11,514 nucleotides of DNA from positions 1 to 11,514 of the forward strand of contig JAUSKK010000035.1 in the NCBI GenBank assembly GCA_030649345.1. Direction: 5' to 3'. The notes below the pieces were generated by a model. It was not told where the DNA came from and ran no database searches. It saw only the letters and a program-made list of their open reading frames with translations. The stretch comes from Candidatus Iainarchaeum sp. GTDB taxonomy: Archaea > Iainarchaeota > Iainarchaeia > Iainarchaeales > 0-14-0-20-34-12. Positions within the stretch are counted from its first letter, which is position 1. The number at the start of each line of letters is the position of its first letter. The position numbers and the translations under genes are program-made. This document shows, piece by piece, positions 715 through 8,836 of the stretch.

Positions 715-1812
715 TTATTTCTCAAACAATACTATGCTTTCCCGGACTGTTGCTTTTTCTCCGCTGTGCCGATAACAGTCAATTTTTCGGCATTCAATAA
801 TTTCCAAAACTTTGAATCCAATTTCTGCTCCGATTTCTGCCAATCGTTCATCGGCTTCAATGGTGCAAGAAGGAAAACAGCCTCCGGCTAAAACAAAAAA
901 TGCTTTTCCTTTAGGTTTCATTCCTTCAAAAATTTGTTCCAATACTTTTTTCATATCCTTAAAATAGGCTTGGGCCACCAAAGGCAATTCGCTTTCTGTT
1001 TCTGCTTTAAATTTTTCTTCTCCTACAAAAGCTCTTAACCGTGTTTCTTGTCCTTTGAAAAACAATCCTAATTCAGCTTTGTAGACTGTAGTATACTCAA
1101 TTTTGTTCAAATACGGCGGACTGGTTATTACAGCATCAATAAATTCGCCTTCCAGTTTTTGAGTTCTGGCATCGCTTTCAAATACTCTAGGTTCTAATTC
1201 AAATTTTATTTTTTGTTTCTCTAAATCATTCAGCATGCTTTGTACTTTTTTTTCAAACACTCGTTGAATCGGTTTTACATATTTGTGTTTATTTAATCGC
1301 AAACTCCCGCCTCGTTTTTCAGCCAGCATGCATTGATCCACTGAACTAATTAAAGCCAAGCGAAAAAAGTCTTGTATTTTTTCGTTTTTAATTTTCAAAA
1401 TTCGTTCATGGAATCCTATAATTTTTTCCAATTCACTTCGAATGAATAATCTTCGAAGCCAGCGTTCTTTGGATATATTTCCAGTGAATTCAATTTTTTC
1501 TTTTTTTAATGCATTCCATTCTGTGTACAATTCATTCAAATCATAATTTCTAGTTTTAACTTTGCTGGCCAATACAGCTAAAGGAGAAACATCATAGCCC
1601 AAAGAATCCAAACCTAATTCTTTGCAAGCCAATAAAGTGGTGCCAGAACCACAAAAAGGATCTAATACAATTCCTTGAATTTTGTATTTTTCAATTAACC
1701 AAACAATCAAATCTTTGGCATAGCCTTCTTTGTAATAAAACCAATTATAAATAGGTAAATGTTTGTTGGGGACAAAGGTTACGGCTTCGGATAAATTAAT
1801 TTCAGTTTGCAT
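715..1812 (-). CDS. SAM-dependent DNA methyltransferase (N6-adenine or N4-cytosine type, SPPY catalytic motif), with no recognisable restriction partner nearby
   Basis: The SAM-binding motif I (VLDPFCGSGTT) is near the N-terminus. The catalytic motif IV (ITSPPYLNKIEY) lies about 185 aa later, with a helical insert between them. I trimmed the track ORF 715..1908 to the first ATG (complement of 1810-1812, MQTEINLSE...), because the upstream 32 codons start at GTG and are simply the tRNA-Thr sequence translated. Confidence 0.75.
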   Translation of the reverse strand: MQTEINLSEAVTFVPNKHLPIYNWFYYKEGYAKDLIVWLIEKYKIQGIVLDPFCGSGTTLLACKELGLDSLGYDVSPLAVLASKVKTRNYDLNELYTEWNALKKEKIEFTGNISKERWLRRLFIRSELEKIIGFHERILKIKNEKIQDFFRLALISSVDQCMLAEKRGGSLRLNKHKYVKPIQRVFEKKVQSMLNDLEKQKIKFELEPRVFESDARTQKLEGEFIDAVITSPPYLNKIEYTTVYKAELGLFFKGQETRLRAFVGEEKFKAETESELPLVAQAYFKDMKKVLEQIFEGMKPKGKAFFVLAGGCFPSCTIEADERLAEIGAEIGFKVLEIIECRKIDCYRHSGEKATVRESIVLFEK

Positions 1813-1842
1813 ACCTATCTGGGAATCGAATAAAAGAAAAAG

Positions 1843-1914
1843 AGCCTCCGATGGGAATTGAACCCACGACCTGCGGTTTACAAAACCGCCGCTCTGCCAT
1901 TGAGCCACGGAGGC
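1843..1914 (-). tRNA. tRNA-Thr (anticodon UGU), 72 nt, no intron, CCA not encoded
   Basis: The minus strand reads GCCTCCG-TG-GCTC-AATGGCA-GAGC-G-GCGGT-TTTGTAA-ACCGC-AGGTC-GTGGG-TTCAATT-CCCAT-CGGAGGC-T. This gives a full cloverleaf with a 7-bp acceptor stem, the D-loop GG, U33, A37 and a TTCAATT T-loop. Confidence 0.92.
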
Positions 1915-4989: not shown

Positions 4990-6678
4990 TTATTGTACAG
5001 TGATAGTTGGCCCGGTAAATGTATCGTTTGCAGTGTTAGGGTCGTTATCAAAGTCTATGGTAACACTGGTTTGAAATGTTCCCGGGCTGGGCCCATAGGA
5101 GTGCTGGAAGTTACACAAGGTCTGCACTTGATTTAGTGTGCTCGCGGTGCTTCCTTGGCAGTTTTTGTCACCGCTGCCATCTCCAAAGTTGATGTGAATC
5201 GTGTATCCGTTGAATGATTCACCTGAAGACGATCCAGGGCCCAAGTTGATGGTTGAAATGTTATAACTAAACACTTGATGCACGGCCAAGGTTTGGGTTG
5301 ACGTATTAAACGCTGCATTGTTTACGGTTACGTTCACGTTGTCAACCTTGTAATCGTATTCTTGCGGTGCAGCGGGTGGCACATTCAAGTTCACACTGGT
5401 TTCGCAGGATGCATAATCAGTATCAATCATAATGTTCTTGCTGGTTCCATAATTTACTGCGCTATAAGAACAAGTCGCAGTGGCAGTGTCTCCAACAGCA
5501 GTCACAGTTTGCTGGTTGTTTTGAGAACCTTCACAGCGTACTCGGACTTCAGTATTTGGGCTGTCGACATCTGTTACAGTTACTGTTATTTCGCCTGCGC
5601 CGTTAAGCATAGTAGGATTTACAGTCACTGTACATTCTTCGTATTGCATAGTATCTTCATAAGGGCAGTTGACGATCTCGCATCCGTTTTCGTCTGTCTC
5701 ACGAATGGGTGTTTTCCCATCTGCTCTACATTGTTGTTCGCTTTCTTGCAGGCTGACTTCGCTGATGCAACTGTTTTGAGTGATCACAGTAATGTTCTTG
5801 GAGCAGGAAAATGTTTCGGTTTCGTTGATAAGATTAACAGTAATATTTCGGCTCCCAATAAAGGATTCATCGGAGTAGCGACAACTGAATGCTTTTTCTC
5901 TGCCAGTGACTGTAATGTTTTCGTTTCCAGTTCCGTAATCACAGTCCAGTGTTCCTGTAACTGGATATTCGAGGTTTTCAAGGATCACGTAAGAGTATAC
6001 TGGAGATCCATTTACTTGGACTTCAAGAGGATATGAGTCAAGCGTACAAGCTGGTTCCAAATTTGTAGTCTCATTGTCTTCGCTATCTTCTTCAGTATCT
6101 GAAGTTCCATCTTCGTTGTCTTCAGGTGTTGTTGTCTCAACATCAGTAGGTTGGGTTTCCGTAGTGTCAGTATTTTCTACTTCTCCACAGTCACTGTCCA
6201 ATTCAGTTGTGCAGCCTTCTGGGCAGTATTCGTCTCCGCCTGCACAAGCAGTGATGTATGTGCTTCCACATGTTTTTGGTTCTCCGGAGCACACGTCTCT
6301 TGTAGCAGGATTATTATCATCACAGTCAGTGTCTTCTTCACAACTGTCAGTTCGGTTGACTTTTCTGATAAAACAGACAAGTTGTTTGTCGGCAACACTT
6401 ACCCATGCTTGCATGATAGATTCCGGACTTTCAATGTTTGCGTAGAAATAATCTTGGGCTGGAATACTCTTTCCGCATTTCTCGCTAATGTCTGCAAGCT
6501 GAGTTGTAATTTCGGCTTCAGTCAATAGAACAACAGTTAAGTCCGAGTCCGGATTTTCCGCCAAAAAGTTTTGTACTTCCGGTAAATTTGAAACAATATT
6601 GGTTGCAGAGTCTCCGCCTTGCGTACATCCAAACAAAACAAGTGCTGCTAGAATGAATGCTGCAGTTCGTAATTGCAT
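4990..6678 (-). CDS. secreted or lipid-anchored Cys-rich surface protein with an acidic Thr/Asp/Glu linker, two paralogous Cys-containing beta-type modules and a PKD-like C-terminal domain
   Basis: I take the start at ATG (complement of 6676-6678), because the track start at 6687 is a TTG. The N-terminus MQLRTAAFILAALVLFGCTQGG looks like a signal peptide with a lipobox-like LFGC. A Cys/Asp-rich block (CEEDTDCDDNNPATRDVCSGEPKTCG...) follows. The linker is TDTTETQPTDVETTTPEDNEDGTSDTEEDSEDNETT. There are many N-x-S/T sequons. The C-terminus INFGDGSG...FQHSYGPSPGTFQTSVTID resembles the PKD signature. Confidence 0.8.
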   Translation of the reverse strand: MQLRTAAFILAALVLFGCTQGGDSATNIVSNLPEVQNFLAENPDSDLTVVLLTEAEITTQLADISEKCGKSIPAQDYFYANIESPESIMQAWVSVADKQLVCFIRKVNRTDSCEEDTDCDDNNPATRDVCSGEPKTCGSTYITACAGGDEYCPEGCTTELDSDCGEVENTDTTETQPTDVETTTPEDNEDGTSDTEEDSEDNETTNLEPACTLDSYPLEVQVNGSPVYSYVILENLEYPVTGTLDCDYGTGNENITVTGREKAFSCRYSDESFIGSRNITVNLINETETFSCSKNITVITQNSCISEVSLQESEQQCRADGKTPIRETDENGCEIVNCPYEDTMQYEECTVTVNPTMLNGAGEITVTVTDVDSPNTEVRVRCEGSQNNQQTVTAVGDTATATCSYSAVNYGTSKNIMIDTDYASCETSVNLNVPPAAPQEYDYKVDNVNVTVNNAAFNTSTQTLAVHQVFSYNISTINLGPGSSSGESFNGYTIHINFGDGSGDKNCQGSTASTLNQVQTLCNFQHSYGPSPGTFQTSVTIDFDNDPNTANDTFTGPTITVQ

Positions 6679-6726
6679 CCTAACCAAAGGACTTTCAGAT
6701 TTATATTCTTTTCGTGCAAAAATATT

Positions 6727-6951
6727 TGCCCCAGCCGGGAATTGAACCCGAATCTCCGCCGAACTTCAACGCTTTTTGTTAACATTTTTTGCAAACGCAA
6801 AAAAGGTTTCGCCGAAGGCATTTTCCGCCAACGCTTTTTTGCAACCAAGTAAAACCAGCTGGTTTTACGGGTCCAGCAAAGCTATTGCTTTGCTTGACAG
6901 CAAAAAAGGGTTGTGAGAGGGCAGTATACTTAGCCGTTGTACTACCGGGGC
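6727..6951 (-). tRNA. tRNA-Glu (anticodon CUC) interrupted by a 152-nt intron at position 37/38
   Basis: The 5' exon (6951-6914) reads GCCCCGG-TA-GTAC-AACGGCTAA-GTAT-A-CTGCC-CTCTCA. The 3' exon (6761-6727) reads C-GGCGG-AGAT-TCGGG-TTCAATT-CCCGG-CTGGGGC-A. Joined, they give a 73-nt cloverleaf with one G.U in the acceptor, one U.G in the anticodon stem, one G.U in the D stem and one U.G in the T stem. The splice junction is ambiguous by 1 nt, and isotype identity rests on the CUC reading. Confidence 0.75.
6762..6913 (-). other. long, ORF-less, highly structured tRNA intron
   Basis: All coordinates are + strand. There is a 20-nt perfect palindrome GTAAAACCAGCTGGTTTTAC (6849-6868), an 8-bp hairpin AGCAAAGC-TATT-GCTTTGCT (6875-6894) and an 8-bp hairpin TTTTTTGC-AAAC-GCAAAAAA (6785-6804). 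CTTTTTTGC (6834-6842) is complementary to GCAAAAAAG at both 6797-6805 and 6900-6908. The intron termini pair with each other. Confidence 0.65.
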
Positions 6952-6998
6952 CTTATATGTTAATTAGAATTAAAAAAGAATAAAAAGATGCTGAAAAG

Positions 6999-8048
6999 TT
7001 ACACGTCTTTTAAAGTGATTTTTCCAGCTTTAATTTCTGTTTCCAGCTCAGTTAAGGCTTGAATTCGTTTATAGGTTAAAGGATGTGAACTAAACCATTC
7101 CATGAACTGGTGGTCTTTTTCCCATTGAATGACTTTATCCAATTCTTGGGCTCCAAAACTTGGTCTTTTTTCTTGGCTTCTTTTATGTTCACTGGTTTCA
7201 ATTTCTTTAGCCAATTCATCGCTGCGAACACGCGCTAATTTTGCTGAATTAATTGGATCTGCAAAATAAAAAGAACGCATTCCGCCATAATCTTTTCCTT
7301 GGCCTTGCACTGGAAAACCATACGCAATTTTAGCCAAGCCGGTTCTCAAAGCTTTTGGATTATTGGTTGCCACAGCACTAAATGCATCGGCAAAACTTTC
7401 TCGAGTTCTACCTAAACGCATTACAATTAAACTGCTTAAAAATTGAGCAATAAATGCACCCAAATAAACCAAAATAATACTTAAAAAATTTCCTCGTCCG
7501 TCTCGGTCTCTTCCTAAAAAAGAACCAAAGAAAACAATTGTATAATACACCATCAAAGGCAACATACTGGCTACAGTAATCACTGCAACATCCCAGTGTT
7601 TAATATGTCCAATTTCGTGTGCAATCACTGCTTCAATTTCTTCTTTGTTTAATCGTTCCAACAAACCTGTATGCACGGCTAAATGACTACTGCTTTTGGT
7701 TCTGCCAAAAGCAAAAGCATTGGGTGTAGAATCCCAAACCAAATACACTTTCGGTTTTTTAATTTCTGCAATCTCACTATATTTTTCTACTATTTCATGA
7801 ATCCAATGTAATTGCAAATCTTCTTCTGGAATTTCTCGCATTCGCGTAAACCATTTAATTAAATTTGGAGCAATTAACCATTGCAAGCCAACTACAAAAG
7901 CAGACAGAACAACAACTGAAATTAATCCGCCAATCAAACCCAAACTTGGGCCAAATAACCATAACAAAATTCCCAAAATTCCAGCTACAGTTCCAAACAA
8001 TAAAGTTAAACTTAAAATCATTGCAAATTTCAATTTACTTAAACTCAT
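6999..8048 (-). CDS. htpX: HtpX-family M48 zinc metalloprotease (membrane protease)
   Basis: It is a 349-aa ORF with N-terminal transmembrane helices and the HEIGHIKHWD zinc motif (HExxH). Further hydrophobic segments follow. The downstream SRESFADAFSA could supply the third zinc ligand typical of M48 proteases. An AGGTGA motif lies 4 nt upstream of the ATG. Confidence 0.9.
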   Translation of the reverse strand: MSLSKLKFAMILSLTLLFGTVAGILGILLWLFGPSLGLIGGLISVVVLSAFVVGLQWLIAPNLIKWFTRMREIPEEDLQLHWIHEIVEKYSEIAEIKKPKVYLVWDSTPNAFAFGRTKSSSHLAVHTGLLERLNKEEIEAVIAHEIGHIKHWDVAVITVASMLPLMVYYTIVFFGSFLGRDRDGRGNFLSIILVYLGAFIAQFLSSLIVMRLGRTRESFADAFSAVATNNPKALRTGLAKIAYGFPVQGQGKDYGGMRSFYFADPINSAKLARVRSDELAKEIETSEHKRSQEKRPSFGAQELDKVIQWEKDHQFMEWFSSHPLTYKRIQALTELETEIKAGKITLKDV

Positions 8049-8742: not shown

Positions 8743-8836
8743 TGCCGGTGGACAGATTTGAACTGTCGACGCCCAGATCACCCTTCAATTTTAGAAGCTA
8801 TGAGTCTGGTGCTCTACCAGGCTGAGCTACACCGGC
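8743..8836 (-). tRNA. tRNA-Met or tRNA-Ile2 (anticodon CAU; non-initiator acceptor stem) with a 20-nt intron at 37/38
   Basis: The minus strand reads GCCGGTG-TA-GCTC-AGCCTGGTA-GAGC-A-CCAGA-CTCATA-[GCTTCTAAAATTGAAGGGTG]-A-TCTGG-GCGTC-GACAG-TTCAAAT-CTGTC-CACCGGC-A. All stems are perfect Watson-Crick. The intron occupies 8779-8798. Confidence 0.9.

Follow-up and report, generated by a model that had tools for sequence, protein, structure and literature searches.

How does a tRNA gene come to carry an intron of 152 nucleotides (nt), and does such an intron do more than separate two exons? The question is raised by the tRNA-Glu(CUC) gene at positions 6727-6951 (minus strand) of the 11,514-nt stretch of DNA analysed here (contig JAUSKK010000035.1; below, the window). 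The host is an uncultured DPANN archaeon related to Diapherotrites/Iainarchaeota. An initial annotation of the window placed the 152-nt insert between tRNA positions 37 and 38 and suggested a switch-like regulatory fold, an intron RNA with a function of its own or a degenerate mobile intron. We find that removal of the insert restores the cloverleaf, which supports its membership among canonical-position archaeal tRNA introns. The simplest reading of the repeats inside it is that they are two diverged copies, which would have arisen by a partial duplication, in tandem, of the anticodon arm and an older, shorter intron. The intron does not constitute a new class of element, and nothing indicates that it has a function of its own.

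The tRNA-Glu(CUC) gene and its orthologues

When introns were allowed, ARAGORN called a tRNA-Glu(ctc) gene of 225 nt with a 152-nt intron (call c[6727,6951]); the gene was missed by the default mode of the program and by Rfam at the gathering threshold. With long introns permitted, ARAGORN also produced false calls in four bacterial loci (L015, L092, L120 and L124), so an intron-mode call alone is weak evidence, and orthology and alignment are needed for the gene call. The gene and its insert, as given in the initial annotation, are confirmed. Read on the minus strand from 6951 to 6727, the gene consists of GCCCCGGUAGUACAACGGCUAAGUAUACUGCCCUCUCA, 152 nt and CGGCGGAGAUUCGGGUUCAAUUCCCGGCUGGGGCA. 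The boundary chosen by ARAGORN is one base off 37/38. The intron begins with C and a C follows it, and because of this one-base ambiguity the canonical 37/38 placement is valid and leaves the mature tRNA unchanged.

The spliced product is 73 nt long and forms all 21 cloverleaf pairs. The conserved tertiary positions U8, A14, G18 and G19, as well as U33 and the T-loop bases, are intact by eye, and the G+C content of the spliced tRNA is 60%, compared to 35.5% for the window. In an alignment of nine sequences, comprising the spliced window tRNA and eight related archaeal tRNA-Glu(CUC) genes, standard pairs were found in 99.5% of the pair cells (33-50% when the partners were slid), and the window tRNA has a compensatory change of its own, from G12-C23 to A12-U23. 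By hand count, 33 of the 38 bases of the 5' exon are identical to those of the intronless gene of Iainarchaeum ARS1307. An AT-rich, promoter-like stretch lies upstream of the gene, and an oligo-T run follows it.

On one strand, the window carries tRNA-Thr(GGU), RpiA, a CAU tRNA, HtpX, tRNA-Glu(CUC) and tRNA-Thr(UGU), followed by a divergent gene for a CxxCxxCC-domain protein. The order Thr(GGU)-RpiA-Met(CAU)-Glu(CUC)...Thr(UGU)-CxxCxxCC recurs in four Diapherotrites/Iainarchaeota metagenome-assembled genomes (MAGs), namely L102 and L037, which are Candidatus Iainarchaeum MAGs, L129 and L132. An M48 peptidase gene directly upstream of tRNA-Glu is common to the window and L132; in both, it is among the extra genes that lie between tRNA-Met and tRNA-Glu. 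Judged by gene order and sequence, the exons are orthologous to tRNA-Glu(CUC) of Iainarchaeum/Diapherotrites relatives. The orthologous loci were recovered by synteny anchored on RpiA, although the contig of the closest relative, L128, stops before tRNA-Glu. When HtpX/M48 was used as the anchor, the three closest homologues (55-58% identical) were found in other neighbourhoods without tRNAs. The best HtpX and RpiA relatives, the closest in the searched collections, are only 58% identical. DNA patterns of the exons gave no matches for the 5' exon in species-representative genomes and none for the 3' exon in metagenomes of the Joint Genome Institute (JGI); a looser pattern of the 3' half matched 120 loci, many of them bacterial and irrelevant, and a narrower one matched two metagenome loci.

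An independent Logan assembly, SRR13727527, is 100% identical to the window over 5662 bases that include the intron, which makes an assembly artefact unlikely. The tRNA-Glu(CUC) orthologues are intronless in five MAGs (L102, L037, L126, whose sequence equals that of L102, L129 and L132) and have only a D-loop intron in three (L066, L130 and L131). The L127 orthologue contains a D-loop intron and a 57-nt intron at 37/38, while in that of L012 the intron at 37/38 is 181 nt long. Alignments of the window intron with the introns of L012 and L127 gave scores at the shuffle mean, and so no detectable similarity to either. On these comparisons the 152-nt sequence is lineage-specific. No recovered orthologue has a homologous intron, and the only likeness is with a 25-nt block in L123, a Nanoarchaeota MAG considered below.

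Repeats and proposed splice sites of the intron

The intron is highly structured. CTTTTTTGC or its complement occurs three times within it and four times in the whole window, where 0.93 occurrences are expected. GCAAAAAA is present, and AAAAAGCGUUG occurs twice, exactly. As described in the initial annotation, there is a perfect 20-nt palindrome (6849-6868), accompanied by two hairpins (ca. 6871-6898 and ca. 6781-6808), and the repeated segments allow mutually exclusive pairings. The intron alone folds with -52.7 kcal/mol (z = -3.9), and the precursor with z = -4.2; in neither case was any of 200 shuffled sequences as stable. The insert had been called free of open reading frames (ORFs). Two mechanical TTG-start ORFs of 64-66 amino acids do overlap the region, but neither has a Pfam match, and to that extent the description stands.

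The repeats include bases that resemble exon. The 24-nt exon/intron junction UGCCCUCUCACAACCCUUUUUUGC recurs in the middle of the intron as UGCCUUCGGCGAAACCUUUUUUGC, which is 75% identical to it, the layout being UGCC-CUCUCAC-AACCCUUUUUUGC at the true junction and UGCC-UUCGGCG-AAACCUUUUUUGC in the mid-intron copy. The inner junction (6810..6829) is made up of GGCGG, which repeats the 3' strand of the anticodon stem, then AAAA, then UGCC, which repeats the 5' strand, and finally UUCGGCG, a degenerate anticodon loop. Both copies of AAAAAGCGUUG lead into GCGGA, the start of the 3' strand of the anticodon stem, with an extra AAGUUCG between them in the terminal copy. The two halves, CUGCC...GGCGG (100 nt) and AAAAUGCC...GGCGG (69 nt), were aligned with cheap gaps and gave a score of 43.4, compared to 20.5 +/- 4.8 for 500 shuffles, none of which scored as high. 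In both, the order of units is the same: anticodon-stem 5' strand, loop, U-tract, A-tract, GCGUUG, anticodon-stem 3' strand.

A history of the following kind would account for this arrangement. Part of an older, shorter hairpin intron would have been copied in tandem along with the anticodon arm, after which the inner splice junctions would have decayed, the inner 3' site losing ca. 7 nt and the inner anticodon loop being mutated. Copy 1 holds a 57-nt insert of two hairpins that is missing from copy 2. In the present gene, the archaeal splicing endonuclease would cut the pre-tRNA at CA↓C and UU↓C (arrows mark the cuts), and the ligase RtcB would join the exons to yield a tRNA of the normal 73 nt. 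Such a duplication history would also explain why there are two U-tracts and three A-tracts with mutually exclusive pairings, and no designed switch is needed; the "switch-like" design proposed for the repeats is thus better explained as a diverged partial tandem duplication that took in exon-derived bases. The inner copies are ca. 25% diverged, while the exon stems have lost no pairs, which we read as selection on the exons after the expansion. As far as we could find, duplication of exon-derived bases within a tRNA intron has no earlier description; it adds an evolutionary detail to an element of a known kind. If the intron is spliced as proposed, it offers a sequence-level example of how such introns can grow: the anticodon arm and the intron are duplicated in tandem, and the inner splice sites then decay.

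A bulge-helix-bulge motif can be drawn at the required site, as had been reported. It extends the 5-base-pair (bp) anticodon stem and has a central helix of C32-G, U33-A, a C34.A mismatch and U35.G, flanked by bulges C36-A37↓C and U-U↓C38. The inner helix consists of AAC/GUU, a C.C mismatch and CUUUUU/AAAAAG (3+6 bp). By our rough estimate, the chance of such a motif at a pre-specified position is ca. 0.01. The 3' strand of the central helix, GAAG, is the full complement of a CUUU loop, which belongs to a UUC anticodon, and forms one C.A mismatch, at C34, with the CUCU present here. The motif is absent from the predicted minimum-energy fold, and the conformer that contains it is predicted to be ca. 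9 kcal/mol less stable than a fold of two domains. In domain 1 of the favoured fold, the 5' end of the intron pairs with the mid-intron A-tract (4+9 bp), and in domain 2 the mid-intron CUUCGGCG (6810-6817) pairs over 8 bp with the 3'-terminal CGUUGAAG (6764-6771). The alternative partners of the copy 1 U-tract (6900..6913) are the mid-intron A-tract and the 3'-terminal one. In this fold UU↓C is a 3-nt bulge beside the anticodon stem, and CA↓C lies in a small internal loop. The enzyme would have either to capture the less stable conformer or to cut two relaxed half-sites. DPANN endonucleases are reported to carry loops that go with broadened specificity and with many disrupted tRNA genes (PMC5829648; PMC12397907).

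We also considered that the favoured fold may itself be a natural "split" splice motif, in which the two sites are presented separately, each partnered by the decayed inner copy. Next to the 5' site would be the 13-bp helix that involves the mid-intron A-tract, and the 3' site would be the bulge between the anticodon stem and the CUUCGGCG/CGUUGAAG helix. For splicing, the RNA would have to rearrange into the classical bulge-helix-bulge, or the endonuclease would have to cut two bulge-helix half-sites that are independent of each other. We regard this model as quite unlikely. If true, it would represent a living intermediate of intron lengthening by duplication and possibly show drift from contiguous to split tRNA genes, like that for Nanoarchaeum tRNA-Glu; the mid-intron block shared with L123 would then mean that the arrangement is old and maintained.

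Related introns and rival explanations

Introns of 28-181 nt at 37/38 were found in other DPANN tRNA-Glu genes. The tRNA-Glu(CUC) gene of the uncultured archaeon L012 (CAYTYC010000004.1, 5340-5595, minus strand), which has the same Thr(UGU)-CxxCxxCC synteny as the window, contains a 181-nt intron with a 30-nt internal direct repeat (AAUCAGAACC..GGUUCCGRUACCUCC; score 32 versus 12.6 +/- 2.1). In the tRNA-Glu(UUC) gene of the Nanoarchaeota MAG L123 (JAUYQE010000070.1, 7380-7616, plus strand), there are two introns, one in the D-loop (ca. 36 nt) and one at 37/38 (127 nt). Its anticodon stem, CUGCC/GGCGG, is that of the window, the termini of the 127-nt intron pair together in the minimum-energy fold, and a bulge-helix-bulge can be drawn by hand (CUUU/GGAG and AAACC/GGUUU). 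The 5' ends of the two introns are alike (CAAACCUUUGC in L123, CAACCCUUUUUUGC in the window). In L123, too, the 3' splice strand has a copy in the middle of the intron (GCUUUGGAG versus GGUUUGGAG), and the mid-intron block AAAAGCUUUGGAGCCAAAUCCCUUC matches AAAAGCGUUGGCGGAAAAUGCCUUC of the window at 20 of 25 positions. A match as good was obtained in 1 of 1000 shuffles with one scoring scheme and 8 of 1000 with another, values that are uncorrected for some five comparisons. In two Aenigmatarchaeota tRNA-Glu(UUC) genes (L094 and L044), with introns of 60 and 28 nt, the central-helix strands, GAAG and AAGG, pair with the CUUU loop at every position. These likenesses, with the fit of the GAAG of the window to a UUC loop, hint at but do not prove descent of the window intron from an intron of the tRNA-Glu(UUC) type that is widespread among DPANN archaea. 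ARAGORN mis-types the L123 gene as tRNA-Pro.

The D-loop introns of tRNA-Glu genes (L066 1784-1896, L130 6565-6677, L131 2975-3087, L127 852-1024 and L121 7180-7357) sit after ca. position 20/21. Several DPANN lineages share GCCGARA as the last bases of this intron, which points to a single non-canonical intron that is old and homologous among them. The 37/38 intron of L127 also has the D-loop intron motif GUCGCCGAA at its end, suggesting that an intron was duplicated within this gene. The genes listed are mis-typed by ARAGORN as Lys, Ile or Gly.

The window intron resembles canonical 37/38 introns, which are cut by EndA at a bulge-helix-bulge and whose exons are joined by RtcB, in its site, in the two 3-nt bulges that can be drawn around a 4-position helix involving the anticodon loop, and in the lack of a credible ORF; the host is an intron-rich DPANN archaeon, in which the neighbouring tRNA-Met has a 20-nt intron. 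It differs from them in its 152-nt length, the C.A mismatch in the central helix, a splice-competent fold that is not the optimum, and a decayed second anticodon arm. The published range of archaeal tRNA introns is 11-129 nt, with a median of 12-25 nt (PMC4090602, a 2014 review). The annotated length is therefore unusual and, if the intron is spliced as proposed, extends the recorded range, but it is not unique, given the introns of 181 and 127 nt in related MAGs; a newer survey of lengths was not found. Like the tRNA-Glu introns of L012 and L123, the window intron is long, structured and contains internal direct repeats. It differs from that of L123, where the termini pair together, in that its mid-intron copy out-competes the 3' end, and from that of L012 in having no overall sequence similarity to it.

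Nanoarchaeum equitans has split tRNA-Glu genes whose halves are separated at 37/38, and Thermoproteales have multi-intron genes or transposed introns. The window gene is likewise a DPANN tRNA-Glu broken exactly at 37/38, with complementary flanks that hold the halves together, and likewise appears to have evolved by duplication or transposition of intron sequence. Unlike the halves of split genes, those in the window form one contiguous locus on a single strand, with 152 nt between them and a single promoter-like region upstream, and nothing points to their being transcribed separately. Euryarchaeal tRNA-Trp(CCA) introns (median ca. 65 nt) nest a box C/D guide RNA, and the window intron is also a long 37/38 intron that could carry an RNA. 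As previously annotated, however, it lacks the motifs: box C (RUGAUGA in the tRNA-Trp introns; UGAUGA and UGAUG were sought here) and box D (CUGA) are absent from the precursor, and an Rfam search at E <= 10 over 6650-7020 returned only noise, with no snoRNA-type or group I/II match. A box C/D guide RNA intron is thus ruled out. A group I or II self-splicing intron was rejected on the same Rfam result, and in our judgement 152 nt is too short for a catalytic core.

Taken together, we consider it probable that the intron is an ordinary, endonuclease-spliced one that has grown by duplication, and that the gene is functional. The analysis establishes the gene, its exons and their orthology, the duplication inside the intron and the lack of conservation of the intron, whereas splicing, the direction and order of the duplication events and the lack of a function for the intron are inferred. 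Several observations weigh against this reading. No close relative, and so no intermediate of the duplication, is found in the databases, and the match with L123 could mean that an architecture of two copies is not recent but old and common to both. A relaxed scan found ca. 100 motifs of like quality in the 225 nt, so that the motif alone barely discriminates, and its central helix, of four positions, includes one C.A mismatch and one G.U pair. With the bulge-helix-bulge and the cloverleaf enforced, the ensemble energy is -73.9 kcal/mol, compared to -83.0 kcal/mol with the cloverleaf only, and the competing fold, in which the 5' end of the intron pairs with the mid-intron copy, is transcribed first. 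The genes for EndA and RtcB are both outside the 11.5-kb window. The folding energies and the mismatch also speak for a disabled or poorly functional gene, whose precursor would mostly misfold and splice inefficiently, GAG being read by tRNA-Glu(UUC). In a genome of 35% GC, GAG is presumably a minority codon and the CUC isoacceptor may be dispensable, and the five intronless orthologues (one a sequence duplicate) show that the insert is lineage-specific. We nevertheless think a disabled gene unlikely. All 21 stem pairs and the checked tertiary positions have been kept in a tRNA of 60% GC, against 35% for the genome, and the promoter-like upstream region and the downstream oligo-T run are present. 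What has decayed, by ca. 25% divergence and the loss of 7 nt, are the inner pseudo-splice sites, which could mis-splice.

A functional intron RNA, either a conformational switch controlling whether tRNA-Glu(CUC) is spliced or a stable (possibly circular) RNA with its own role, could be argued from the strong structure of intron and precursor and from the two well-defined, exclusive pairings of the intron 5' strand. The L123 intron, with its mid-intron copy of the 3' splice strand and its 20/25 block, adds that such a "decoy" could be conserved. High fold stability, however, follows automatically from inverted and direct repeats, and exon-derived bases with a decayed anticodon loop look like leftovers of duplication and are not what a sensor needs. 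In L123 itself the paired termini predict no switch. In every recovered orthologue the intron is absent or replaced by an unrelated one, so there is neither conservation nor covariation to support the function or regulatory fold that had been suggested, and no Rfam family or box C/D motif points to one. We therefore regard a functional intron RNA as very unlikely.

LAGLIDADG genes can reside in bulge-helix-bulge introns of archaeal rRNA, and the window intron might be a degenerate mobile one that once encoded a homing endonuclease, or a copy transposed from another tRNA gene. A free-standing LAGLIDADG_3 ORF ca. 4 kb away, adjoining tRNA-Thr(GGU), and the patchy presence of introns among the orthologues are compatible with mobility, and the better fit of GAAG to a UUC loop than to the CUC loop hints at a tRNA-Glu(UUC) paralogue as the source. 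Yet no ORF remnant with a family match, and so no intron-encoded endonuclease, was found. Neither the intron nor its 20-nt palindrome has a copy in viral contigs or phage genomes, and there is no other copy in the window. A length of 152 nt leaves little room for a decayed ORF of at least 160 codons, and most of it is already explained by internal duplication. A mobile origin, as put forward in the initial annotation, or a transposed one is thus highly improbable.

Feature coordinates and neighbouring genes

The features of the gene and the neighbouring genes with coordinates are collected in the table.

Table. Positions in the window of the tRNA-Glu(CUC) gene parts, of intron segments and of neighbouring genes
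Feature	Positions	Strand	Basis or remark
5' exon, tRNA positions 1-37	6914..6951	-	sequence, ARAGORN; anticodon CUC at 6915-6917
CUCU (C32-U35), 5' strand of central helix; 5' bulge CA↓C at 6913-6915	6916..6919	-	folding, motif scan
Intron, 152 nt, CAACCC...GAAGUU	6762..6913	-	ARAGORN and folding
Copy 1 U-tract strand CAACCCUUUUUUGC, intron 5' end	6900..6913	-	repeat search, folding
57-nt insert, copy 1 only: hairpin GCAAAGC-AAUA-GCUUUGC and palindrome GUAAAACCAGCUGGUUUUAC (6849-6868)	6843..6899	-	inverted-repeat search, folding
Mid-intron A-tract GCAAAAAAGCGUUG, duplicate of the intron 3'-terminal strand (AAAAAGCGUUG, 11/11 identical)	6829..6842	-	direct repeat, alignment
Exon-like junction inside intron	6810..6829	-	direct repeat of 24 nt, 75% identical to the real exon/intron junction
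Copy 2 U-tract AAACCUUUUUUGC with short hairpin partner GUUU-GCAAAAAA	6785..6809	-	repeat search
3'-terminal A-tract strand AACAAAAAGCGUUGAAG	6764..6780	-	folding
GAAG (6764-6767), 3' strand of central helix, then 3' bulge UU↓C (6761-6763)	6761..6767	-	folding, motif scan
3' exon, positions 38-73, then oligo-T run	6727..6761	-	sequence, ARAGORN
565-amino-acid ORF	4990-6687	-	no Pfam match
tRNA-Met/CAU with 20-nt intron at 37/38	8743-8836	-	Rfam aligns CAU
Free-standing 254-amino-acid ORF, LAGLIDADG_3 (= L001 299-1063, minus strand)	ca. 10780 to beyond 11514	+	Pfam E = 7.6e-6, above gathering score
N6/N4 DNA methylase-like longest ORF, GTG start	715-1908	-	
tRNA-Thr(UGU)	1842-1914	-	

In default mode ARAGORN called the tRNA-Met gene Tyr(ATA), and when introns were allowed it called Thr(CGU) with an intron at 34/35. 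Here, too, the bulge-helix-bulge is relaxed, no strict motif being found at the expected position. Five syntenic relatives, L102, L037, L129, L130 and L131, have an intronless Met(CAU) between RpiA and tRNA-Glu; elsewhere, Met(CAU) has a 25-nt intron in L132 and, from hand parsing, apparently two introns in L128. Default tRNA finders thus miss the tRNA-Glu gene and mis-call tRNA-Met, which contributes to apparently incomplete tRNA sets of DPANN MAGs. Two T6 runs within the intron were considered as a transcription stop and rejected, such runs being common inside ORFs: there are 17 runs of T6 or longer in the 8.6 kb of sense-strand ORF sequence in the window.

The last codons of the LAGLIDADG_3 ORF run antisense across tRNA-Thr(GGU), and the ORF continues past the end of the window; it may be a relic of a homing endonuclease beside a tRNA gene. 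At the other end, the methylase-like ORF overruns tRNA-Thr(UGU), so its true start must lie downstream of the tRNA. The 565-amino-acid ORF starts ca. 40 nt downstream of tRNA-Glu, and its N-terminus resembles a lipoprotein signal (MQLRTAAFILAALVLFGC).

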